From positions 1-64,000 of the IMG/VR virus record IMGVR_UViG_3300034024_000020: DNA of 64,000 nucleotides. One strand, written 5' to 3'. The notes below the pieces were generated by a model that saw nothing but the letters and a program-made list of their open reading frames with translations, did no database searches and had not been told where the DNA came from. Below, in pieces: positions 1,438 through 47,715 of this stretch. This DNA comes from a virus. A program made the translations under genes and the position numbers. Position 1 is the first letter of the stretch; the number at the start of each line of letters is the position of its first letter.

Positions 1438-1744
1438 CCGCTAGGGGGCGGCGGCATGGGTTCCTTAACCCTCGCCCGATAGGGCAACCGCCGTCCCCGC
1501 ATTTTTCTCTTGACAAGCCGCTAGGTTGGCGGTAATCATAAGGAACAGAGTTTCGGCCTCGCTTCGGCGGGGTCGGAACTTCGTTCCGACCGCGATTTTT
1601 GAGCGCGCTACTCCCATTATGACAGGTATTTTTCTTTTGTCAACCCCATCTTTTCTCTTGCGTGAAAGATTTTTTGCTGTAGAAGAGAGTTATCGGAAGC
1701 GGAAAGGAAAGGAACAGCCGGAACGCCAAGAAAGAGAACGCGGG

Positions 1745-2240
1745 ATACAATGCAGGCATGGAAGTATGGCTTAGGCTTGATCAGATGTGTTAACCTGCTG
1801 CGGTTGAATGGTTACTCTATAGGGGCCTCACCCTGAATAAAGTTGATGTGCCGTTGGCGGTTAGCCAAGCGTTATAATCAAGAAACCTAGATGGGAGGGG
1901 GTGGCCACCCCCTCCCATTGAAACCCCGAGATTATTTTTGTTAGGTAATATCCCAAACCCCTTGTGGGTCAAGTCTTAGCCAAGAGCGAAGGTTGCAACT
2001 GCGGGAGAAAAGCCTAACTGGGTCAAGCGCCTCTGACCGAGAAAAACTAGCGTTAACAGTTCTTTTGTCCGGAGTTTAGCTAATTCCGGTGGTTTGCACG
2101 ATAGCCCTCGGTTAATATCCGCGTATGGGACAAAAAACCAGAAGTATAGACCTAGATAGTGTTCGCCTTCGGACTTGTTCCAAAAGGGACCTTACTAAAT
2201 GCTAGGCTAGGGGTGGCAAAGGTATGACCCACCCTACTTA
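1745..2240 (+). ncRNA. Putative structured non-coding RNA (~500 nt)
   Basis: No ORF of 60 aa or more spans it; many hairpins (atgggagggggtggccaccccctcccat, ggtca/tgacc, ttttgtcc/ggacaaaa, cctag/ctagg, gggtgg/ccaccc). Strand assumed. Confidence 0.5.
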
Positions 2241-2341
2241 ACACAGGTTAGTCACTTTTCCCTTGACGGACCAAACTAATTTCCCTACCCTAGAGAGACA
2301 GAAGGACCGCTGACTTGGATCGGCGGTCGGACTTCCGACCG

Positions 2342-2427
2342 GAACAAAACGTGATCAAACCAGGAACAGGGCCAGGACGAAAGCAGAACAAAACGAGAAC
2401 AAACCGGGAACAGAACAAAACGAGAAC
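2342..2427. repeat. 11-bp-phased GAAC tandem array (overlapping LexA-type GAAC-N7-GAAC boxes)
   Basis: GAAC/GATC/GGAC at 2342, 2353, 2364, 2375, 2386, 2397, 2408, plus a second-phase pair at 2413 and 2424. Confidence 0.75.
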
Positions 2428-2467
2428 GAGCATGATATGTTATATCATCGCGCTATGCGCCGACGTA

Positions 2468-2526
2468 AGTAGTACGTCAACAACTATTTTTACATGCACC
2501 CAGTAGTACGTCAACAACTATTTTTA
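2468..2526. repeat. Direct repeat agtagtacgtcaacaactattttta x2
   Basis: Two exact ~25-nt copies; each reads AAAAATAGTTGTTGACG on the minus strand, like the -35 half of the phage promoter. Confidence 0.8.
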
Positions 2527-2848
2527 GTAGTTGGTCAATTAAGGTTAAATTCAGCAAAGCTTAAAATTTTTGCTGATTTCGCGTCAAAAGCCGCTTACTT
2601 TAAGTTTAGCAGAGTTTTCAGCATTTGTCAAGACTTATTTTAGCTTATGTTGACTTGATTGCCCCCGTTTGCTTTAAAGTGATTTTCGATCCGCGCGGCG
2701 AGGCTTTGGATGGGCAAATTAGGCATATCTTGCGCTCATTTGAAAAATTGCACCGAAATTATTTCGCAGCAAACCCCTCCTCCACATTTTTACAACTACC
2801 GTTTTTGCTATTAAGTACTTAATCAACTAGTACTAGGTCAACTGAATT

Positions 2849-2883
2849 TAGTTCTTGACAATTTGACCCGCTTTTGCTAAGAT
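2849..2883 (+). promoter_or_regulatory. First copy of the recurrent phage early promoter (TAGTTCTTGAC-N17-TATAAT-GGG family)
   Basis: TTGAC starts at 2855, 3089, 5471, 8444, 11351, 13005, 14779, 15491, 15916, 17536, 18436, 20983, 22196, 24650, 25561, 28775, 31829, 34436, 35562, 37242, 38966, 40297, 42646, 45154, 46815, 49284, 53522, 56559; minus-strand copies near 5396 and 24605. Confidence 0.9.
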
Positions 2884-4163
2884 GAAGGCTAAGGAGAGAA
2901 AGATGAGTCATATTTATTCAGCCCCTAACTCAGCAGAAGTTCTAGAAGGCTTACTTTATCACATGAATGATTATGATGACGAAGTAAAAGCTGCTCTAAA
3001 GCTAATATCCGAGCGACATGATGTGCTAAGAGACTTGGCAAACTTCTGGCGTTATGGATACCCCCACGAGAGAGACTGAATTTAGTTCTTGACTTTGCAA
3101 CCCAAAGTCTCTAAGATGGGTCTTAAGAACGGGAGAATAGGCAATGCAGGACCGATATAACGAAATCTATGCAGTAGGAAAAGAGCTAGGCTATAAGGCT
3201 ATGACTGCGCTCGATCAGATGCTGGTTGACACGATGGACAAGAGTGGGCTTACCGATGATAACGATCGGGATGCTTTCACTGAAGGCTTCTGGAATGGAA
3301 TTATATAATGGAATTCGTTGGTAACGGACTTGTATTTTTGTTCTCATGTGTCCTAATCTTCATAACCGTTGTGTTATGGGGATCAGTTGGGATGTCTTTC
3401 GCAGATAGTAAAGGCTGGAACTTCACGCGAATTGTAGCTTTCGTGGTAACCGCTATTCCGGCCACCTTAGGTGGATGGCTTATCTATCTTATGGGATTTT
3501 AAAATGAGCAGACTTCCATTAGTTGTTGTATTCTTGGCAGCATCAATTCTGCTGTTTATTATTAGTATAAATCATAATTCTATGGATGCTAGGATATTTT
3601 CTGCTATTACTCTATTTGCTGCTTTGGTAGCGGCTTTTAAAAAGGATAAAGAATAATGGGACTTTTTGAACTAGATAATATTGATGAGGTTACTGATCTC
3701 ATCGACCTAATTGAAGCTCACGGCGACGACCGTAAGTTCGCAGACCTTTATGAGCGACTCTGCGAGTATCGCGACGATTATGAGGATATGTAAATGATTG
3801 GTGTAATTGTATTCTTTTTAAGCCTTTTCGCAGTCATCTATCTTGAGTGGAGACTGTGGGAATGGGACACGGAAAGGTATGGACCAGATACTGCTCTTAA
3901 TCAGGCGTTTTTCTGGACAGCTACACTTGCAATTCCAATAATTGCAGCAGTCAACTTTTTCTATATGATAAGTATGATTTATGGCAAGATTAACATCCAA
4001 TGATGGGCTTAATAGGAATTGTGATGATCGCTGCCGGGCTAGCTATGATAGTAGAGGATAGACATGCCTACTATAGCTACTAAATTCGCTGTCTTCCATA
4101 GCATGAGTGACGAAGACCTTAATAACAAACCAGAAAACGCCTTTATAGGGATTTGTAACGAAG

Positions 4164-4961: not shown

Positions 4962-5000
4962 AAAAAGGCTCTAGTAGAAAACCTACTAGAGCCTATTTTC
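4961..5000. terminator. Bidirectional intrinsic terminator
   Basis: aaaaaggctctagtag-aaaac-ctactagagcctatttt. Confidence 0.75.
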
Positions 5001-5197
5001 ATTTCTCGACGCCGCGCGCCTCCACCTTTCTAGAATTTCGGATAAATTGGCCCCATCCGAGAACGGATTATCAATCCATCCTTAGTCCATTAAAAATGCA
5101 TTAGTAAGCATATAAGTAATGGTCTGCTTTAGCAGACGCAATGCGATGAGGAGATTAAAAATTGGGCGCTGCCTACTTCGTAGATTAGCTTCCAATT

Positions 5198-5361
5198 TAG
5201 ATTGGTTGTACGATTAAGTAGCTTCGGGGTCATCTACTAAATCATATCTCAGATCGAGGCCAGGGAGCCTCCCTTGAATTCCGGCTCCCTGGATCTCAAT
5301 TCGATTAAGATTTAAGGTGACCCAATCCACTTAATCTTCAATTGACATCCAATCTGTAACT
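5198..5361 (-). ncRNA. Rod-shaped putative ncRNA transcribed leftwards
   Basis: Minus-strand promoter (TTGACT 5396-5391, TATTAT 5373-5368) followed by nested inverted repeats agattgg/ccaatct, gattaagt/acttaatc, gggtca/tgaccc, ccagggagcc/ggctccctgg. Confidence 0.55.
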
Positions 5362-6381
5362 AGTTACATAATATCACACCTTTTCCCAAAAGTCAAGAAC
5401 TTTTTTCGTGAGGTATGGAAAAGGCTAGCTCGATTGCAGCTGATTATTTGAGCATTCGCTTCGATAGTTCTTGACATAATGCCCGTTTTCGCATATAATG
5501 GGAGCTTAAGGAGAGAGAAATGGCCTTTGAAAATGTTAACCTTAAGCGCACCATGCCAGCTGGGTTCGAAGAGCGTATTAGGGATATCATCAATGCTGTT
5601 CCGGGTATGGAAGCTGAAGAGCTTTTGGACCTATATTTTGAGCACGCTAGGAAAAATTACACGGATATGAAGCAGATTGTAATTAACTGCAAGCTTCTAG
5701 CCGAATTGAAGAACGAAATGATGGAGAGAATGTCGTGAGTGATCTAGCTGGTTGGAGTGAAACTATCAAGCGAATTGGTGAAGATAGTCGCCTAAAAGAA
5801 TTGGCTGACGCTGCACAATTTCGCGAAGATATGATCGACATGCTAGCTCATGATCGGGAACAGTCGGCAGATATTCTGCTTAATACTTATGTTTGGGCTA
5901 TCAACGGAAGCTACGGTATGAACCCTATGGCTAGAGCTAAAGCACAATATGCGGATGCTGTTAGAGCTATTATTCTCGAAAGGATGAATTGATGAAGGTT
6001 TGGGTTGAAGGACAAGAGTCTATCGCTCTGCATGAGGATATTATTCGCCTCAATCAGGAGAATATTGAGCTTCGTGATGAAGTCCGAAAGTGGCAGGAAA
6101 TCTCTATGAAGATGACGGAAATGGCTGAGCGATTGGCTAATCTTCTTCTAGACTCGGTGGAGGAAGCACATGAGCTTCGCTGATGAACTTAATGAGGCCC
6201 TAGATGAAGTGGCGGGACGAGCTTCCAAGAATAATAGCCGAAAACCACGCGAGGAGACTCGCCTTAGCCCCATTGAGAGCAAAGTGGGACGCAGAAGCTG
6301 AGTTCAAGCGTAATGCTAGACGTAAGCTTGCTTCGCGCTTGGCGGAGATTGAATTGTCTCCAGAAGAAAGAGTTTATTTGA

Positions 6382-13523: not shown

Positions 13524-13838
13524 ATGAGTTATACAGAGGAACTGACTAAATCAGTCATAGAAGAGTACGAAGCTGACCCGTCTAGGGAGACAGTTGATCG
13601 TATTGCCGAAAGAATTGGAAAGACAACAAGGTCGGTTATTGCTAAGCTTGCAGCAGCGGGAGTTTATCAAACCCCGCAGCGCACTACGAAAACTGGCGAA
13701 CCGATCGTCAAGAAAGAAACTCTAGTCGAAGAGATCGAAGGGTGGCTGGAAATAGAATGCCCCACCCTAGTTAAAACTGGTAAAGAAGATTTAAAACGCG
13801 TTCATAAAGTACTACAGGAGATTTTCGTTGACGCCTGA
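13524..13838 (+). CDS. A2/D5-like DNA-binding protein paralog
   Basis: RSVIAKL...YQ...TTKTGEP motif shared with 1069-1437. Confidence 0.75.
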   Translation: MSYTEELTKSVIEEYEADPSRETVDRIAERIGKTTRSVIAKLAAAGVYQTPQRTTKTGEPIVKKETLVEEIEGWLEIECPTLVKTGKEDLKRVHKVLQEIFVDA

Positions 13839-14832
13839 GGTAATTGCACTCATTGCAGAACTCGAGAATATCGGGGAAAACAGAGAGGCTGAACCAGACT
13901 TCCGAAACCGAGCAGCAGCGCGTAGAGCCGCGAAGCTGATAAAGGAACTTTATGCTCAGGAAAGCAGCTTGGATAGCCAAGCAACTTAAGGAAGATAGGG
14001 AAGACGTATATGACGTGCTTCTTGGAAATATAACCAAACCTAGGAGTTTAGTTGATGCTGTTGCGGCGTGCGAGTCTGAATACGATTCCCTTCTCACCAG
14101 AGGAACCGGACGGAAAGATAAAGTGGATTCAGGATCAACTGAAGCGGGACGGTTTTCATCTTACTAGTGTTTGTATCCGTAATATCCTCCAAGGAAGCTT
14201 GACTTTCATGGATGAGTATACTGTAGGGTATGTTCACGAACTTTCAGAGAAGTGGAATGTCCAGTGCAACTAGATGGGGTTCCAGTCGTAGAGTATGACA
14301 AAAGCATTTTGACTGTAGCAATGGCTATGATTAACGTCACTATGGAAACCAATCAGGTTGACGCTCGCGCTTTAGAAATTGTATTCGAAGAAGCAGTTAA
14401 AGAGGCTCGTGAACTTTTGAAGGAATGTGTTTATGGATGATATCGAGCGCATGATTGACGATAGAGATATCCTCGAAAACAGTGTGATCTTTTATGAAGA
14501 CCAACTTAGGCAACTTCGTCTTGATGGAGTTCCGGAAGATGACATTCGTATTGTGCATCTAGAAAAATGGATCCACGAAGATACGAATGAGGCTGATGCA
14601 CTGAGTAGGCTAATTGCCGAAAATGACTAAGTTTCGTATGAGCGGATCGTTTGCTATCGAAGTTGAAGCTGAGGATTCAGATGCAGCTTATGACATTATT
14701 CATGAGAAAGTTCTACAACACTTTTTCTGGGATAACGTGCATGACTTCGGCCCCGTTGAGGAAGACTGAATATAGTTCTTGACATTGGGCTCGATTTTTC
14801 GTATAATGGACTCTCAAGACGGGAGATAGTTT

Positions 14833-15289
14833 ATGAAAAAGGGTCAGATGTTAGGGAACATGATTGTTCTCGCTACAAACGCCCACGCTGGTCAGTTTGA
14901 TAAAAGGGGGCCAGCCTTACATCCTTCACTGTCTGAAGGTACTACATTATACTGGGTCCGATGATGAGGAAATCCAGTGTATTGCAGTCGGACACGATCT
15001 TCTAGAAGATACTGATGTTACAACTGATGATCTTTATGAAGCTGGGATGACAGATAGGGTTGTAAACGGCATCCTTCTTCTAACGAAGATGCCCGGACAA
15101 TCTCTAGCGAAGTACAAGGAAGGCGTTCTTGCAAATGCAGACGCTCGAAAGGTAAAGAAAGCCGATCTGAAGCACAATAGCGACATTCGTCGTCTTAAGG
15201 GTGTAACAGAAAAAGACATTGCACGTAACGGTCGTTACATGTAGTTTTACGCAGAAATTGAAGCAAAGGAAGCTGAAGAAAATGTTTGA
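14833..15289 (+). pseudogene. HD-domain (RelA/SpoT hydrolase-like) gene with a +1 frameshift and an in-frame TAG
   Basis: AHAGQFDK in one frame; GGQPYILH...HDLLEDT...KKADLKHN in the +1 frame (extra A in GATAAAAGGGGG at 14899-14910); TAG at 15242-15244 with open continuation to TGA at 15289. Confidence 0.7.
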
Positions 15290-16504
15290 AGAAATTATGG
15301 AATCCTTTAACGGTCCTGAAATTGAATATGAGGGCACATATACCCCTAGAGCTCCAATTGATGTGCAGATGGTAGCTGAAGCTCTTGAGCCCGGCTCTCC
15401 GGAAGATATCTCTAGCAATTCTCTTTACCTTGAAGCTGAAGAGGTCGAAGAAATCCGAGAGATCGCAGCCAGCTTCGCTTAAAATAGTTCTTGACATTGT
15501 CCTCGGTTTTTCATATAATGGGGGACAACGAAAGGAAAGCGGCATGACAGATCGAGAAGCGCTTGAATACGAAATTGAAGACGCTATGTTCGAACTTAGT
15601 GATGCTGAGAGTACTCTTTATCGTTTGGAAGACGAAGGTTTAGAGGGTACTGACGAGTTTGACGAAGCTGAGCGCGACGTTTATAATGCAGAAAATCATC
15701 TTGCTTATCTGCAAAGTTTGAGGTCTGAACATGACAGCGAGTGAGCAAGCACAGGAAATTGGAAGCCTGTTAGGTCATGACGCTGTTGTGGCTCTTAGAT
15801 TCTGGACTTTCTGTAGTGATATGGAAAAGTCAAGTGATCCTAGAGCTAGAGAGTTCCTTAAAGGTTTGGATCAAGTTTATAGAGTTCTGAAATTGATCAA
15901 AACTGAATAAAGTTCTTGACTTTGATCTCAGATTTTCGTATAATGGGTTATCAAAAGCGGATAGCGGGCAATTCACGGAGTTGTCGCAGTTCACCGACTT
16001 AGAGGCGCAGACTTAGTCGCTCTGCTTAATGAAAAGGACTATAAATCGCCTCCTTTATATCTCGGCTAAAGTCCTTAATTGTGAATAATAACCGAGATTA
16101 AGGGGTGCACTACTTAGGTGCTTAATGTGTCATAATGAGGATGTACGCCCCACTATAAATATGGTCTCGGACTGTAAAGGGAACGACGGAATATCAACCA
16201 TGTTCTGTCAATGTTCCAGCACTTTATGGAATGAGAGTAGATACCGCCAAGTTGGATGATGGAGAAGCCGCTGTTGCGAAGCCGTTATCGAGCCCATTGA
16301 CTTGGAAGGTCCCATATAGTTAGGGTGCAATGCGCTTAATGGTGTTTGCAAACCGCCTTAACTCTTTTTACCTGTGAAATACCCCACGGTCGCAAGCAGG
16401 TAGTTTATATCATATAATGTGTTATAATAATCTCGAGAGCACCAGCGGTTCCCAAGTCCGCCTAAGAAAAACCCGAGTGATCGGTACTGGTGCAAAAACC
16501 CTAA

Positions 16505-16575
16505 ACTATGTGATCCGTCGGACGGAACTCCCCTCTAAAGGGACATATAAACAGGTTCAACTCCTGTACATAGTC
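16505..16575 (+). tRNA. Embedded tRNA-like element, anticodon CTA (amber-suppressor type), no CCA
   Basis: actatgt/acatagt acceptor; tccg/cgga D-stem; tccc-CTCTAAA-ggga anticodon arm; acagg-TTCAACT-cctgt T-arm. Confidence 0.7.
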
Positions 16576-17484
16576 AAAGGGTGGGTGCACAGGAATGTGT
16601 ACGCAGATTGGACTAGAAGTCGCGAATCTGACCATATACTAAGACAAGGCAAATTCGCGAAGCCTCTACCACGCTAGAGGTATTAAAACATGGGTCTTCT
16701 TAGTACATAGTCTCGCGCGAGACAGAGGTGAGCGTAATTCCTCGTTCAAAAAGATCAGGGTTATGATCTGCCTCATTCGCGCAGAAATTGCGAGGCGCTT
16801 TAACCAGCGACCGCCAAAGAGGTCCGAGAAGTGACACATACGGTTATGAGCCGACTTAGTGCGGGACGTGGTTTGGCCACCACTATTAGCCCAAACGGAA
16901 TCGTGGAGGAACCCCGTATGCTACTGTCTATGGCTGAGTGCACTTGCCCATAGAAGTAGGGAAAAATGTCGCAGGTCCCAACGCCTGCCTCGGAAACAAT
17001 TTATGGGACCCTGAAAGGGGATAAGGTAATGCACAGTGACACTTGGTCAAAGCGGTTGCAAACGCCTCCAAGTCGGACAGGGTGATGCAATACTCACCGT
17101 TTGTGCCAGGGAACACCCGGGTTGCTATCAAACGCCGGACCTGAATTAGACAATTTTGATAGATTAGCCTAATCCCAAACTCTCGTTCTGCCGGTGTAAG
17201 AAGAACCGGAAATCTACCCTTGTAAGATCCAAAGGGCGGTGCTAGTTCTGACATAATTAGCCGCTGGGGTCCCAACCAGTGTAAGCGACGAAAGGACGCA
17301 AAGCGGTAAAGCGAGAGCTTGCAAAAAAGCTGCCGCAAATCTAGAAAGACGTTTCTAGTAATAGGGTGTGAAGTGAGCTAAGCTAGCAACATTCTTCACG
17401 CAGATATGTATACCAAGTGTGTCTAGAACCTTGGTGGATTGGAGCGAGGGGGGGCGACCAATCATTTCGGCAACGTAACGATCC

Positions 17485-17516
17485 GGGTGTGAAGTGCCAG
17501 CTTCACACCCTTTTTT
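17485..17516 (+). terminator. Intrinsic terminator
   Basis: gggtgtgaag-tgccag-cttcacaccc-tttttt. Confidence 0.85.
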
Positions 17517-17634
17517 GTGTTCGTTAAAAAAGTTGTTGACATTTGAGTGTTTTGGTGTTATTATAGAGACTGAATAAATCAGCCATATTCTAGTGCAGCT
17601 AATGTAGTGGGAACTGGCTAAGTCGGAGACCGCA

Positions 17635-17910
17635 ATGGCGCTTTTTATTGGTGGTCCAATGGATGGACAACGAGTTGAGGTAGAACCCTCACGCAATTAT
17701 ATACAAGTGGCAATAGAGAAGCCACTAAAAATTAAGGAAGAACATACTGTAGAAAGATTCTCTACTACAGTTGAGAGAGACCTCTTTACATACAAGGCAG
17801 AGATATTAGCTTGTCCAAACAAGCAATACACAGTTTTCATTCCTGACGACTATGATTGTCAGGATTTTATAGATCATTTAATTAGAGGGTATAGACCTAG
17901 TGCAAATTAA
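17635..17910 (+). CDS. Hypothetical protein
   Basis: FIGGPMDG N-terminal motif; GGAG RBS. Confidence 0.7.
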   Translation: MALFIGGPMDGQRVEVEPSRNYIQVAIEKPLKIKEEHTVERFSTTVERDLFTYKAEILACPNKQYTVFIPDDYDCQDFIDHLIRGYRPSAN

Positions 17911-19578: not shown

Positions 19579-22569
19579 AGTGATTGATGTAGAACTTAGC
19601 CGAGCAGAGCTAGAGCTTATCAAAGACCTAGCTAAAACTGCTATTCGACAGAGATTGTTTCCTGATAATTCTTTATATGAACTAGAGAAGTATATGGATC
19701 AGATGTTGGAAGAACTCGAGGATATGGAAGGTGAAAAAGTTGTTTGATTATTTTAACCGACTTCGCTGGGCACATGCCTATTTTGGTGCGGGAGAGGGTA
19801 AAGTCTCTCCGTTTGAAGCCCTTTATGTAATGGATTTGATTGATGCTGACACCTATCGACGTTTCGAGGGCCGTTAAACTTCCTGCTAAGTTTAAATACT
19901 ACAGGGAGGGAGTCCTCTATTATGAGACCGGACTTGGTGACGTTTTTGGCGTTCCCTTGGATGATCTCGGAAAAGCTACCGTAAATGCTGAGGAGAAAGG
20001 AATTCTTCTCATGCGATATATGAGACTACACAACGAGGCTATTAAAAATGCGAAATCTGATTGACAATGCGACTAACAACCCAGGTATGACTGTGCTATG
20101 TGTAGCACTGATCGTCCTTGCGATCTTCATTATCTATGCCAATTTCTTTGCTCCGCGCAGAGAGATTGAACTAGTACATGAACCCCGTTATGAAAAGTTC
20201 GGTAACTACGGAAACGGAGCCAACGAACAGGACGGTCGAATGCCTGCTGTAGGCGATGCTTTTAGCTCTAAGTAAAAGGAAATATAAATGCCATTTGTTA
20301 TTGTAGCCTTTCTAGCATTGATTGCTTACCCTGCGTATCTGCTTTATAATGAGATCGAGGAATTTCTAGAAGAGGAAAACATGAATTTTCGAGAATTTGT
20401 GGAGATGATGAAGCAGGATGCTCGATCTTAAGAATGTAATCTGGGAACTTAGGTGGTCTAAGGCAGGCAACCGTATTATCATCACAGAAATAGATAATGA
20501 AAATGTCTATTTTGAGGATATCTGTGATCGTGAAGATGTTGGCTGCCTAACCATTGATAAGTTCTGCAAAAACTATAAAGCAGTAGGAGAACTACAATGA
20601 AGGCACTATACGCTGTAAGCTATACTGAATACGAGCGAGGCTGGGGTCAACGCCCAGATGGAACCTCCTACCATAGGAGTGAGGAAGATGCCAAGGCGTT
20701 CACAAAACGTATTCACGGCGATAGAAGTGGTAGCGTGCCTGACGAGTATACTAATGCTGACGGTCCTCCACGTCTAGTAGAAGTTAGTGATGCATTATAC
20801 GATCATGTTCAGGTAGGCGGTAATTACTGGTCTACTATGAATAGTTTCACGCAAGCACGCAATTGGAGTGTGCTCAATCCGAAAGGTATGTAATGGCTGA
20901 TATTCTAGCAGTTGTGCTGACTATAGCTTTGCTTGGTAGCGGACTCTATTTCTATGTCTTTGACCGGCAGCCGAAATAGTTCTTGACTTTGTACCTGTTC
21001 TGCCCTATACTGGTCAGACAACGGGAGAGAATTATGGACCGCGAATTAGCTGAAAAGATTGCTTACGATTTGCTCGGCACTTGCCGCTCTCTAGCTGACA
21101 TTGCTCTCAATTATCACAATGTAGAAATTGATGATCTCTCTCATGAAGAAGAGGACCTTTTACATGATGTAGTTGACAACATTACATTCGAATGTATTGA
21201 ATGTGGTTGGTTTCAGGAGGCGGGCTACTGGAACACTGACGATACCGATAATGGTAATATTTGCCTAGACTGTAGGCCGATGGAGGATTAATGGACGACA
21301 ATGTAGAAGAGTATGATTTCGATGGGGATTGTGCTGTTGAATGCGAACCTTTGAGCGAGCGTCGTATGCTCATTATCAAAGTTCTACAAGGTGGAGATAT
21401 TCACGCTGAGGATAATGATGGGCAGATGATTATCGTTCGAGACGACGGAACCGTTAGTTCGTTCCTTCACGGAGATACCGATTGGGTTCAGGGGGAGTTG
21501 ACTGTCAATGGTGAAAACTATTGGGAGGGAACTGCTTGGGACGTTATCGGATATCATCTGGGTATGACTGACGGTGCCCAAATGGAGAGGGCCCGAGGTG
21601 GATCAACTCAGTAGAGACTTGCAGGTTGTATTTGGATTTTCCAAAGCAAATGCACTTTCAGCTGTATGGCTGTACAGAAGAGGAAAGTTAAGTCCGGAAG
21701 AGGATGATATGCTTTTCTATCTTGAGAAGAAGCCTTGGGATCAACCCATGTTTCGAAATAAGGATTTGCCCAATGTTAAACCGGGCATGGAAAGAGTCCT
21801 AGAGCATCTAAACTATAGGATAACAGAAGCGGGTGGAAACCCAGTATAAGAGGTACATAATTAATGCCAACATTTCTAATTGTCGTAGGAACTCTAGTTT
21901 TACTGATTGGTACAACTATCTTGAGGGGTATTACCCTTAGCGTATTGTGGGGTTGGTTTATCGTTCCGCTAGGTGTTGTTTCAATTGGCATCCCTGCTGC
22001 TATGGGTATCGCCATGTTGGTTGCCATGATGACATGGCAAGACGTGGTAACTCAGAAGCGAGAGCTAGGTGGGGCTTTCGGCGTTGCAATCGGACAATGC
22101 CTATTCGCACTACTAGCCGGGTATATTCTTACCCTGTTCATGTGAGGTTAATGAGGGTCTCGCTTCTAACGAAGCGGGGCCCTTTAATTTAGTTCTTGAC
22201 ATGTACCCCTCGGTCTGCTATAATGGGTTCATATCTGGAGATAAGTCCGATTTGCCCTATTAGGCCAGGTACATATAATGATAACAGTAACCATAAAGAA
22301 CCAAGGGGCTATTGAATTCGAAGACTTCGAGAACGCTATGGCGTTTGTAGAAGAGCATCCAGAGATGTATGCATTCGATGTTGAAAATTTATCACTATTT
22401 AGCGATGAACCCTTTGAGGGTTTGATTATAGCGGAAGAAGCCATCAAAGAAGTATTCCAGTGTGCTGGATGCAAGGTATGTGTAGGCTTCCATAGACGCT
22501 CTGATCAAAAAGAACTAAGAGTTAAATGTCCTAATTGTGAAGCAATCCATAATATAAAGGTTAAAGACG

Positions 22570-25894: not shown

Positions 25895-26222
25895 ATAGTC
25901 GTTGACGACTGTAGTAAAAGCCGGAGGATACGCGGGTTCAACTCCCGCCACCTCCACCAAAACAAGACCGCCTTTTGCGCAGAGGGTAGCTAGGTTGGCA
26001 GGGTGGCTCGCGCAGCTGTCCGACAGGTTCGAGTCCTGAGTGTCTTGTTTTGATGGGGGTGAACTGGGATCGACCGAGGGCGGAATAAGCAATCTGAGAC
26101 TATTGACTGGCAAAGTGCCATAAGTAAAGGCAAATGATAATGAGCCTATGGAGGAAATGGAGCTTCGCCTAGCGGCGTAAGCTCTCTCCGGGGACTGGCC
26201 CACCTGTCACAACAACGGGCCA
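25895..26222 (+). ncRNA. ssrA: Two-piece (circularly permuted) tmRNA
   Basis: Acceptor piece ends gcggg-ttcaact-cccgc-cacctcc-a-CCA (25959); coding piece starts GGGGGTG (26055) giving G3.U70; tag ANDNEPMEEMELRLAA* at 26130-26180. Confidence 0.9.
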
Positions 26223-39653: not shown

Positions 39654-40009
39654 TTTTAGGTATTGACCATGTCAGTAGTTCAGTTTTTCTTTGATCGCTT
39701 TCACAGAGCGATCCAGATGGATGGAGTTCACAGTTCTAGTCTAAGAAATCAGCTAGACGCTGATGAATGGATACAGGCATATAAGAATACCCTGAGTAAG
39801 AATCAGCTGGACAAATTCGACAAAGAATGGGCTAAGTGCGAAGAAGCGCTTAGACTAGCTCGAAGAAAGGCTGATTTTGGCAAGTAATGGCAGCGTGGAG
39901 TCGATAGGGACACGCGTGCGACCTCGTCAAGCACAAAGGGCTAGCGTTTGAGCCTTCACCCTGGACAAGTGAAGGGTAAGTTAGCGACGAGACGTTCCTC
40001 TCTTTAGGT

Positions 40010-40086
40010 GTGGCCGAGGCTGACTTGGTTGAGGCGCTGGTTTGTGGTACCAGAGATAGCGGGTTCGACCCCCGCCGGTCACCCCT
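40010..40086 (+). tRNA. tRNA-His(GTG)
   Basis: gtggccg/cggtcac; C discriminator; CCA not fully encoded. Confidence 0.8.
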
Positions 40087-40349
40087 AAGGAGAGCGCTAT
40101 GAGTTACTATGATTTCCCTCAAGGCCCTTCTTTAGAAGACCTTGAAAAGGCAGCTAACGCTATTAAAACGGCACGCTTAGAACAGAACTACGGCTGGGGC
40201 TTTTATGATTATATTCCAGAGCCAACCATTAGAGAGGCTTGGGATTACGTACAAAATCAGAAGTGGCCTGACAGGTAGGTTAGCTGAAAAAAGTTCTTGA
40301 CATGATGCCCATTTTTCGATATAATGGGACTTCAAGCGGCGAGGACAAC

Positions 40350-40622
40350 ATGGCGTTCTTTTACAACGAAAATGAACCCTTCACAGGCGGAGTTATTCCT
40401 TACCATAAGGTTAACGCTAACAGGTCCTATTTGAGGCACTATGAGAACAGTTTGTTCTTGCAGTTTATGCTCAATAATGGAACGATGGAAGAACGTCGTC
40501 AGGCTAGCAAGGAACTAGCGATCTGCGATCGCAAAATGTCTCGTATGGAAAAGCACGCCAACTTCATTTGGGATGCTGTTCTTCCCGAGATTGAAAAACT
40601 AAAGAAAAATTGGCACACTTAA
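40350..40622 (+). CDS. Hypothetical phage protein
   Basis: Promoter 40297; GAGG RBS. Confidence 0.65.
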   Translation: MAFFYNENEPFTGGVIPYHKVNANRSYLRHYENSLFLQFMLNNGTMEERRQASKELAICDRKMSRMEKHANFIWDAVLPEIEKLKKNWHT

Positions 40623-40624
40623 GT

Positions 40625-40698
40625 TCGCATTAGCCGAACAAGGTGGACGGAACTGACTGTTAATCAGTGCATGAGAGGTTCGATTCCTCTAATGCGAA
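40625..40698 (+). tRNA. tRNA-Asn(GTT)
   Basis: Loop ctGTTaa; no encoded CCA. Confidence 0.8.
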
Positions 40699-40714
40699 CT
40701 TAATTGTGCTATAA

Positions 40715-40788
40715 TGCCCCATCTTCTAATGGTAAGAAGCGTGGCTCTGAACCACTCAATGCACGTTCGACTCGGGCTGGGGCATCCA
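40715..40788 (+). tRNA. tRNA-Gln(CTG)
   Basis: tgcccca/tggggca; loop ctCTGaa; CCA. Confidence 0.85.
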
Positions 40789-40871
40789 TTTTCAACAGGT
40801 ACTCTTACTGGTGCGTCTGCAAAATTCACTGGTAAGGAAGGGAGCGGTGCAGACGTTCCCGAGAGTTTCAT

Positions 40872-40951
40872 GGCGCGGTCTTCTAACATAGGACTAGGAA
40901 CCCTGACTTTCAATCAGGCCAATGCGGGTTCGAATCCCGTCCGCGCTACCA
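40872..40951 (+). tRNA. tRNA-Glu(TTC)
   Basis: Loop ctTTCaa; CCA. Confidence 0.85.
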
Positions 40952-41025
40952 TTTCAGGAGAATTACAGTGGGCTTTATTCTTTTCCTTATAATTCTCTCA
41001 ATCCTCGTTCGAGGAAATCTTTAAT

Positions 41026-41100
41026 GCTAGTCTAGCTCAGTGGTAGAGCGCCTGCTCGACACGCAGGGGGCGCAGGGTTCAATTCCCTGGACTAGCACCA
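41026..41100 (+). tRNA. tRNA-Val(GAC)
   Basis: Canonical cloverleaf; CCA. Confidence 0.88.
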
Positions 41101-41101
41101 T

Positions 41102-41177
41102 GCTGGGTTAGCTTAGTGGTAAAGCGCAAGGTTGTGGACCTCCGTCTAGACAGGTTCGACTCCTGTATCTAGTTCCA
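41102..41177 (+). tRNA. tRNA-His(GTG), atypical
   Basis: Loop ttGTGga; weak anticodon stem; CCA. Confidence 0.65.
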
Positions 41178-41357
41178 TTTAGAAAGTACCAAATGAAAAA
41201 GCTTTATACTGGCGTTAACGGACGCAAAGTAGCGCTTGATCTAAGTAAGGTAGAAGCCATTCTGGACGAAGATGATGGTCGTGTAGACCTCTTTAGTTCA
41301 GCCGATTGGTATAAGATTTTAGCAGATTTCGACGAAGTCTATAAAGACTGGTCGCAA

Positions 41358-41434
41358 GCCCGATGAGATGGCTAGGTGAAGTCGCCTCTTTTACATGGAG
41401 GAAATGAGCGGTTCGAATCCGTTATCGGGTACCA
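41358..41434 (+). tRNA. tRNA-Val(TAC)
   Basis: gcccgat/atcgggt; loop ttTACat; CCA. Confidence 0.8.
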
Positions 41435-41439
41435 TTTTT

Positions 41440-41528
41440 GGAGTGTACAAGCAGCTGGGAGCTGTCTTCGCTTGGAAAGCGAAAGGTGCTTTAATTAGCA
41501 TCCGATTCGAATTCGGGGCGCTCCGCCA
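41440..41528 (+). tRNA. tRNA-Ser(GGA)
   Basis: Long variable arm; loop ttGGAaa; CCA. Confidence 0.8.
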
Positions 41529-41534
41529 TATTTT

Positions 41535-41611
41535 GTCGCTGTCGTCTAGTTGGTCTAGGACGCCAGGTTCTCAACCTGGAAACGGGAGTTCGAATCTCCT
41601 CAGCGGTACCA
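41535..41611 (+). tRNA. tRNA-Glu(CTC)
   Basis: Canonical cloverleaf; CCA. Confidence 0.9.
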
Positions 41612-46849: not shown

Positions 46850-47715
46850 TCAAAACGACGGAAATAACAAGTTTGGCCGTATGGGGTCATTAGGGTAAGG
46901 GTGGCGACACCCCCAAAGCAGGGAAGCTTACATACCTGCGCTCGCAAGAGTCCATCTATACAAGCCTACATCACGCCCGAAAGGGTGTCTTCGTGAAGAG
47001 CGGAGATAGTCGTGAAGTGAGGTTGAGGAAAGAATTCTGGTCGATGTCCCGCAAGGAAGGCAGGCTGGAGAAGAACGGGGTAGTAGCCGTCTCTCAGCAC
47101 ACTAAACTCGCGAACGATGATGGTAAATGGTAGTGCCATTGTTCGATGCTTAGCGGCAAAGGGCTTCGGTGCAATTCAAACGGTTGGTGGGAGTCACACC
47201 CACGTAGATCGTGAAGAATGATTGAGTAGGTTTAGCAGACCAAAAGATAGCATAGGCGTGTTGTATTTCGTAGATTAATAGTCTGCGAAGCGACAGAGGT
47301 AGCACGTCTTGGTAAGTTAATGCAATTTGTTCAATGGTAGAACATTAGTCTATGAAACTGAGAGTGTTGGTTCGATTCCAACATTGCAAGCTATAAAAAC
47401 GCAAAGACTACCTCGGTATACAGCGAAAGTCATCTAATGCCGGACTAAAGAATTCGGCCTAGGAAAGCTCGCAAGGCAGACCTAGTTCATGGTAGATCGC
47501 TCATAAATCTCTTAGCGGAGGTTGAACGGCTCGCAAGGTCGGTGGGAAGGAAATCGTGGAGTAGTTGTATATGTCACCGCAAAAGCTAGCGGTATATCAA
47601 ATGAGCGATGATGTTCATTAGTGGCAACCCTGCCTCTGGAAACCTGATTAAGCACCTCGCAAAAGGTCCGCGTACGGTCAGAAGATTGAACAATTAATAG
47701 GTGTATTCTCAGCCT
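46850..47715 (+). ncRNA. GOLLD-like large ncRNA (~865 nt)
   Basis: Own promoter (46815); ORF-free; many GCAA/GAAA-capped hairpins; GAGTAG..AAAG..GGCGTGTTGTATT segment and 3' end GGTGTATTCTCAGCCT recalled as GOLLD-like; lies inside a phage tRNA array. Confidence 0.75.
47321..47388 (+). tRNA. tRNA-like element embedded in the GOLLD-like RNA, anticodon ATG
   Basis: tgcaat/attgca; gttc/gaac D-stem; ttagt-ctATGaa-actga; gttgg-ttcgatt-ccaac; no CCA. Confidence 0.7.

Follow-up and report, generated by a model that had tools for sequence, protein, structure and literature searches.

IMG/VR record IMGVR_UViG_3300034024_000020 is a complete virus sequence of 115.7 kb, whose first 64,000 nucleotides are hereafter the window; the phage is called G0. 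At 15916-17516, the plus strand of the window has a promoter, some 1.55 kb in which no credible protein gene can be recognized, and a terminator. This is a genuine non-coding transcription unit and it matches no described family. On balance, we think that it gives rise to one early transcript of ~1,565 nucleotides (nt), which is made by the host RNA polymerase and whose modules are strung together and fold independently; we do not see it as a single conserved giant fold. From sequence comparison, at least three of these modules look as if they have been selected: a twister-like three-way junction, a cloverleaf resembling a transfer RNA (tRNA), and a 136-nt domain that is also found in a related phage. 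Coordinates of all features are collected in Table 1.

Promoter, terminator, and absence of protein genes

A sigma-70 promoter and an intrinsic terminator on the same strand make this a self-contained transcription unit of the bacterial type, and the layout in the related phage G001 is alike. Both signals had been placed around the interval by the initial annotation, and both were confirmed, as was the general claim of a non-coding unit with a promoter and terminator of its own. Transcription of the early region of G0 is driven by many near-consensus sigma-70 promoters. The start region downstream of the unit's promoter, ATCAAAAGCGG, is common to other early promoters of G0, and six similar promoter stretches lie elsewhere in the genome. 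A scan of the interior for promoters and terminators returned no internal terminator and no promoter of the phage type.

The terminator stem has GGGTGTGAAGTG as its 5′ strand. This sequence had been described as duplicated, and the two copies (at 17364 and 17485) are indeed exact. The upstream copy stands 121 nt before the terminator (17364-17398), where it has a partner of 6 base pairs (bp) only. In principle, it could compete for the 3′ strand of the terminator. The duplication, on which the suggested terminator switch rests, has no counterpart in G001 and occurs in G0 only; the switch was not upheld.

The absence of a credible protein gene was borne out by each kind of test applied to it. 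Under any reassignment of stop codons, open frames in the unit do not exceed 100 codons on the plus strand or 150 on the minus strand. A coding score, calculated as codon-usage log-odds trained on the long genes of G0, is negative on both strands in each of the 21 scoring windows that span 15825-17550; in the flanks, most values are positive. Finally, the open reading frames (ORFs) inside the unit have no match in Pfam and none among the PHROGs.

The candidate modules

In the three-way junction, GCACCAG/CTGGTGC forms the outer stem and GCGG-UUCCCAAGU-CCGC a first hairpin; the remaining parts are an A-rich joiner and a second hairpin, which is capped by GUGA. In a genome-wide alignment, window positions 16448-16502 matched genome positions 113358-113407 with a score of 51, and the complete paralog, which lies outside the window, occupies 113344-113403 (L204:545-604). 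The two copies agree in having all 13 pairs, five of which have changed on both sides, and do not differ in their loops; in controls with slid pairing, 19-46% is reached. This second copy sits directly 3′ of a stop codon and heads another gene-free, helix-rich stretch of ~310 nt. Neither a covariance model run on 30 related records, which found the junction in G0 only, nor a strict pattern search of IMG/VR yielded a further copy.

Against the type-P3 twister model of Rfam 15 (twister-P3, RF03154; gathering score 39.9), the junction stays below threshold: the match at 16438-16494 reaches 18.9 bits (E 1.6), and the paralog reaches 23.3 bits (E 0.076). Both copies keep P3 (the outer stem), P4 as a hairpin with the loop GUUC-CAAGUC, the A-rich joiner, and P2; in both, the AC whose partner is the loop (T2) is also present, and all upper-case consensus letters outside of the missing part are matched. 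That part amounts to 25-26 nt and comprises P1, L1 and the scissile U-A, and the T1 partner; each copy has a loop of 5 nt in its place. As P1, the internal loop L1 with its scissile U-A, and the T1 partner are essential for a twister (review PMC5408937), the junction is not expected to be a self-cleaving one, although by its sequence it looks like a twister.

The embedded tRNA-like module that had been proposed by analogy with GOLLD, a large RNA also encoded by G0, was found as well. This cloverleaf combines an acceptor stem of 7 bp and a short D arm with an anticodon stem of 4 bp (loop CUCUAAA) and a canonical T arm (loop UUCAACU); it carries G at position 8 and lacks CCA. It is not matched by the Rfam tRNA model (RF00005; threshold 29 bits), and its score with the tRNA-Sec model is 20.8 bits (16504-16575) against a threshold of 47. 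CCA is encoded by 32 of the 36 tRNAs of G0 and by 28 of the 32 of G001. It is absent from the cloverleaf of the G0 unit, from the tRNA-like modules with anticodons UUA and UAU in the corresponding unit of G001, and from the tRNA inside GOLLD, and the embedded modules are therefore set apart from working tRNA genes. The CCA-less state shared with the tRNA of GOLLD is the best point in favor of an analogy between the two RNAs. An amber tRNA serving in-frame TAG codons was also considered. The best candidate for such a gene (67011) corresponds to two separate genes in relatives, and no gene needing amber read-through was found.

Relatives of G0 were collected through polymerase-based and neighbor-based searches, which gave G001 and G002 (both complete), G003 (a 54-kb fragment), L193, and L195. 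The polymerases of G001 and G002 are ~70% identical to that of G0, and L193 is farther from G0 than G001 is, as judged by a shared neighbor protein (58% vs 75%). At the syntenic place, G001 has a TTGACT-17-TATAAT promoter, a gene-free unit of 1.86 kb (L179:436-2300; G001 39735-41599), a 13-bp terminator, and, immediately afterward, the next promoter. Across ~1.5 kb of this unit there is no plus-strand ORF of at least 45 amino acids (aa), and the flanking genes are homologous to those of G0. The promoter-gap-terminator layout thus recurs.

What the two units have in common at the sequence level is the 136-nt domain. Its Smith-Waterman alignment scores 63, compared with 32.8 ± 2.7 in shuffles, and it is the best match of the unit among 344 chunks of six related records. 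Outside of these 136 nt (of about 1570), similarity between the two units is at the level of chance. The indels in the domain are of 1, 2, and 5 nt; because they are not multiples of three, the domain is not coding. It begins in G0 with AGCGACC-G-CCA (16808-16818), which resembles the 3′ end of a tRNA, and in G001 with ACGCACC-A-CCA. In G001, these letters supply the 3′ strand to a tRNA-like cloverleaf of 148 nt that has GGGTTCGATTCCC in its T arm.

Two motifs of the domain are invariant, UCCGAGAAGUG (16823) and AAUCGUGGAG (16899), and on sequence grounds pairing between the two could give a pseudoknot helix, P1. In helices P2, P4, and P5, the letters differ between the phages and the pairing is kept. 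When the alignment was fitted to the model, 95% of cells were paired and four pairs had changed on both sides, as compared with 40-54% and 0-1 in slid controls. Inspection of P2 by eye suggests that G001 is shifted by two columns (AGUAAGA/UGUUACU vs CAUACGG/CCGUAUG), and this shift would add compensatory changes. Since P1 and P2 would cross, the domain may be an H-type pseudoknot.

The counterpart unit in G001 has several pieces of its own. It includes an ochre-type tRNA-like module (UUA) at L179 754-826, a tRNA-Ile(UAU) of 34 bits at L179 1159-1227, a mini-element of acceptor and T arm at about L179 930-1010, and the 148-nt cloverleaf, with an ACCA end, at L179 1350-1497. An 8-mer, TCCGAGAA, is found three times in it (524, 1288, and 1502) against an expectation of 0.03. 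A 14-mer in its 3′ part, CGGAGTAATTAACC (L179:2184), recurs at L193:10063, in an inter-tRNA spacer downstream of the GOLLD of L193. Within the G0 unit, TCCCAA occurs four times, with ~0.4 expected, and three of the occurrences are in hairpin loops.

Table 1. Features of the non-coding unit of G0, in window coordinates
Feature	Position	Strand	Basis or remark
Early promoter TTGACT-17 nt-TATAAT	15916..15944	+	Promoter scan, 11/12 matches
5′ region, hairpin-rich (e.g., 16059-16098, 16102-16151)	15951..16403	+	Without homolog and without coding signal
AT-rich patch with extended -10-like TGtTATAAT (16420-16428)	16404..16431	+	Read from sequence
Three-way junction	16439..16493	+	Paralog comparison and sub-threshold Rfam twister-P3
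5-bp stalk ACCCT/AGGGT carrying the cloverleaf	16497..16582	+	Sequence
tRNA-like cloverleaf, 71 nt, anticodon CUA	16505..16575	+	ARAGORN
Domain common to the G0 and G001 units, 136 nt	16801..16936	+	Against L179 1485-1609, Smith-Waterman
Domain helices	P2 16837-16843/16914-16920; P4 16863-16865/16890-92; P5 16868-16872/16879-16883		
Hairpin GCAGG-UCCCAACG-CCUGC	16971..16988	+	One of three hairpins with a UCCCAA loop
Hairpin CUGG-GGUCCCAA-CCAG	17264..17279	+	9-mer GGUCCCAAC in common with the hairpin at 16971
Exact copy of terminator-stem 5′ strand GGGTGTGAAGTG	17364..17375	+	Partial partner CTTCAC at 17393
Intrinsic terminator GGGTGTGAAGTG-CCAG-CTTCACACCC then TTTTTTGTGT	17485..17516	+	11-bp stem 17485-17510 and T run

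Homologs, structure, and alternative readings

No recognized RNA family had been seen in the interval, and the Rfam 15 scan agreed, with nothing at the gathering score. Even at E≤10, it returned only the tRNA-Sec-like and twister-P3 matches given above. The unit is in the size range of ROOL, OLE, HEARO, raiA, group I and II introns, and RNase P RNA, and with ROOL there is a further likeness in the phage and tRNA-island context; however, the models of all these large RNAs gave no match at the gathering score or at E≤10. The permuted transfer-messenger RNA (tmRNA) model (RF04321) did not match the unit either, and a permuted tmRNA called by ARAGORN only at the 80% threshold, alongside absurd intron-bearing tRNAs, was dismissed as an artefact.

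Every helix named in the initial annotation was found in its place. The description of the interval as packed with helices stands for stems and hairpins, and it fails for folding energy, which is ordinary. There are 15 perfect local stems of at least 7 bp against 6.8 ± 2.9 in dinucleotide shuffles, none of 100 of which reaches 15, and the excess is absent from two coding controls. Hairpins capped by GNRA loops, which had also been noted, are above chance (5 vs 1.4 expected, P about 0.003). The GOLLD RNA of G0 has four of them against 0.85 expected, and coding controls are without enrichment. Two longer-range interactions that had been suggested, a 5-bp pairing between the 5′ and 3′ parts and a 6-bp loop pseudoknot, are short enough to have arisen by chance and lie in a region without an alignable homolog.

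Conventional homology searches returned nothing: blastn against GenBank phages gave no match for the G0 unit or for the G001 unit, and nhmmer gave none in 1.16 Mb of related loci or in G001, G002, G003, L193, and L195. With blastn, too, the relatives were without similarity to the unit. It should be remembered that nhmmer missed even the 136-nt domain, which was later found by Smith-Waterman alignment. Starting from two neighboring genes (the DUF1643 gene and a 119-aa gene), searches of IMG/VR gave no relatives. Pattern scans of IMG/VR, metagenomes, and GTDB genomes with the two invariant motifs of the domain brought up only G001 and random coding matches, and a covariance model of the domain, run on the 30 related records, found only G0 and G001. 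In G002, G003, and L195, the unit is absent and ordinary small genes stand at the expected place, which gene order defines as 3′ of the homologs of 13524-13838 and 13952-14167 and 5′ of the homolog of 20597-20893. A gene-free unit of L193 that was considered as a third instance turned out to be an ordinary GOLLD followed by three CCA-ended tRNAs.

Several of these results weigh against a functional chain of modules. The junction and the 136-nt domain do covary, but about 1.3 kb of the unit is without any homolog. Each covariation count has only two sequences behind it and its statistics are thin; the covariation of the domain is therefore suggestive and not proof. The G001 unit is enriched neither in stems nor in GNRA hairpins. 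The folding energy of the G0 unit (z of -1.5 for 15950-16420 and -4.7 for 16432-17420; -3.1 for the opposite strand) is no better than that of two coding stretches of equal length (-3.0 and -5.0), and 200-nt windows agree.

Among the alternatives, the one that fares best is that there are two or more RNAs, the first of ~450 nt ending near 16400 and the second of ~1.08 kb beginning at the junction from an internal extended -10 element (16420-16428). A split at the AT-rich patch had been raised in the initial annotation; an internal start, a linker, and a nuclease site are all conceivable for the patch. The junction starts ~10 nt downstream of the extended -10, a TATAAT of G001 stands ~8 nt 5′ of the 5′ strand of a tRNA-like cloverleaf, and the 5′ part of the G0 unit folds less well than the remainder, as the two z values indicate. 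On the other hand, the promoter scan rates the patch as weak (9/12 matches), there is neither a -35 element of the phage type nor a start region of that type, no convincing terminator is found upstream of the patch, and no promoter stands upstream of the junction paralog at 113.3 kb. We regard more than one primary transcript as possible, yet on the unlikely side.

The initial annotation took the interval for one giant, ornate RNA founding a new class. Such an RNA, in the manner of GOLLD or ROOL, would have a 5′ domain, a tRNA-like linker, and a 3′ domain, and would perhaps form multimers. Its attraction is that one promoter and one terminator enclose the unit with no internal terminator and no further promoter of the phage type between them, that a CCA-less tRNA-like module is carried on a stalk, as in the GOLLD of G0, that the enrichment in GNRA hairpins and stems resembles GOLLD, and that the repeated UCCCAA loops could make tertiary or intermolecular contacts. 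GOLLD, like the unit, is a large phage-encoded non-coding RNA that is associated with tRNAs and rich in GNRA hairpins.

The comparison also shows where the two differ. The GOLLD of G0 (RF02032) scores 156.9 bits and that of L193 210.8 bits, with a threshold of 150 bits for this model of the 3′ domain; the same model has no match in 15800-17700, even at E≤10. In G0, the RNA extends over window positions 46913-47715, ~340 nt upstream of the Rfam match (47251-47715), its 5′ part aligning with the GOLLD of L193, and its tRNA is at 47320-47391. Over ~800 nt, 471 of 730 aligned positions are identical between the two GOLLD RNAs (score 155 vs 30 ± 4). Similarly, the tmRNAs of G0 and G001 align along their length (score 78 vs 22.5). 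GOLLD is thus conserved lengthwise within the clade, even in a more distant phage, whereas the unit has 136 nt in common with its single counterpart, and it is this contrast that speaks most strongly against one conserved giant RNA. A 10-mer shared by the unit and GOLLD, AATCGTGGAG (47553), is absent from the GOLLD of L193 and was judged a coincidence. GOLLD is found near tRNA islands, sometimes with tRNAs in its linker (bioRxiv 10.1101/2024.12.08.627333); the unit, by contrast, lies among the early genes, ~20 kb away from the tRNA island of G0. Furthermore, the searches run in IMG/VR, JGI metagenomes, GTDB genomes, and GenBank phages produced no more members, and the folding energy is ordinary. 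As the founder of a class, the unit was not upheld, and we consider a single giant RNA unlikely.

A third explanation is that the unit is the decaying remnant of a former tRNA or RNA island, still transcribed, mostly free of selection, and keeping only fragments such as the 136-nt piece. This would account for the several degenerate tRNA-like pieces in the G001 unit, for the tRNA 3′-end-like AGCGACC-G-CCA that G0 keeps without a T arm, for the three relatives without the unit, and for the divergence of the remaining sequence to chance level. Unused DNA is, however, quickly shed by phage genomes, and here a near-consensus promoter and a strong terminator have been kept in both phages. Stems and GNRA loops are enriched, and the junction is present in two copies with compensatory changes. 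Wholesale decay is accordingly doubtful in our view.

That the unit hides small protein genes is very improbable: such ORFs do exist (86 aa on the plus strand at 16417-16677, 44 aa at 16125-16259, and 136 aa on the minus strand at 16928-17338), but in addition to the negative coding scores and the empty Pfam and PHROG searches, translated-pattern searches found nothing (the 136-aa minus frame in IMG/VR, the 86-aa plus frame in metagenomes), and the domain shared with G001 differs by frame-breaking indels.

Genomic setting and possible role

The DNA polymerase of G0 belongs to family A and shares 45-47% identity with the polymerases of T5-like phages (Demerecviridae). G0 also encodes DnaB, NAD-salvage enzymes, ~36 tRNAs, and a permuted tmRNA (25897-26180), in addition to GOLLD. 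The genome had been called wall-to-wall coding apart from the unit; the 1.55-kb gap itself is real, but the description is overstated, as G0 has several other long gene-free stretches. Two of these, at window positions 1445-4163 and 4962-6381 near the left genome end, are without an ORF of at least 90 aa, and G003 has a similar gap of 1.76 kb near its corresponding end. A gene for an HD phosphohydrolase (window 14864-15244) adjoins the unit in G0 and has the same neighborhood in G003; in G001 and G002, it is found inside the tRNA island. This part of the genome has therefore been rearranged between close relatives. The genes that G0 and G001 share and G002 lacks include no candidate for a protein partner.

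If the chain of modules is the right reading, the unit would be one of the RNA accessories that this phage shuffles rapidly, as cargo comparable to the tRNA island, GOLLD, and the tmRNA, and close relatives would differ by gains and losses of modules. The G001 unit has four or five tRNA-like pieces and that of G0 has one, and three relatives are without the unit. The tRNA-shaped modules may be read by the host tRNA enzymes RNase P and RNase Z, which would either cut the transcript into stable pieces, by tRNA punctuation, or be sequestered by it. Early in infection, the resulting pieces or the intact RNA could then act as mimics of or decoys for host tRNA-binding factors. Provided that the unit is functional, we would give this mode of action about an even chance.

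There are partial precedents for such an arrangement. The species 1 and 2 RNAs of T4 and the tRNA region of T5 provide small stable RNAs that are co-transcribed with tRNAs and freed by host tRNA-processing enzymes. They are short (about 120-140 nt) and lie inside the main tRNA cluster; the unit differs in its length of 1.55 kb, in its distance from the tRNA island, and in the lack of CCA in its tRNA-like module. Long RNAs punctuated by tRNA-like elements are also represented by MALAT1/mascRNA and by mitochondrial transcripts, all of them eukaryotic or organellar, and by analogy the CCA-less cloverleaf in a long transcript could be a cutting signal for RNase P or RNase Z. GOLLD, for its part, stays whole with its linker tRNA.

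A bolder proposal, which we rate as a long shot, is that the unit would be the founding example of a new kind of giant modular phage RNA, combining a twister core without its cleavage loop and CCA-less tRNA mimics with stop anticodons, the original chemistry of both having been lost. The RNA would remain whole and, early in infection, its several heads would serve to decoy or scaffold host factors of tRNA binding, termination, or defense, and the UCCCAA loops would make tertiary or intermolecular contacts.

Large structured RNAs such as GOLLD and ROOL are known from phages and, to our knowledge, nobody knows their role. The unit described here offers three concrete objects that can be made: a junction in two copies without a cleavage site, a CCA-less tRNA mimic with a stop anticodon, which has an ochre-type counterpart in the sister phage G001, and a 136-nt domain. 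It also carries a caution, namely that size, helices, and a promoter-terminator frame alone do not make a giant RNA family. If the parts that resemble tRNAs and a ribozyme are cutting signals or decoys, they would tie the RNA islands of phages to host tRNA processing or to tRNA-targeting defense.

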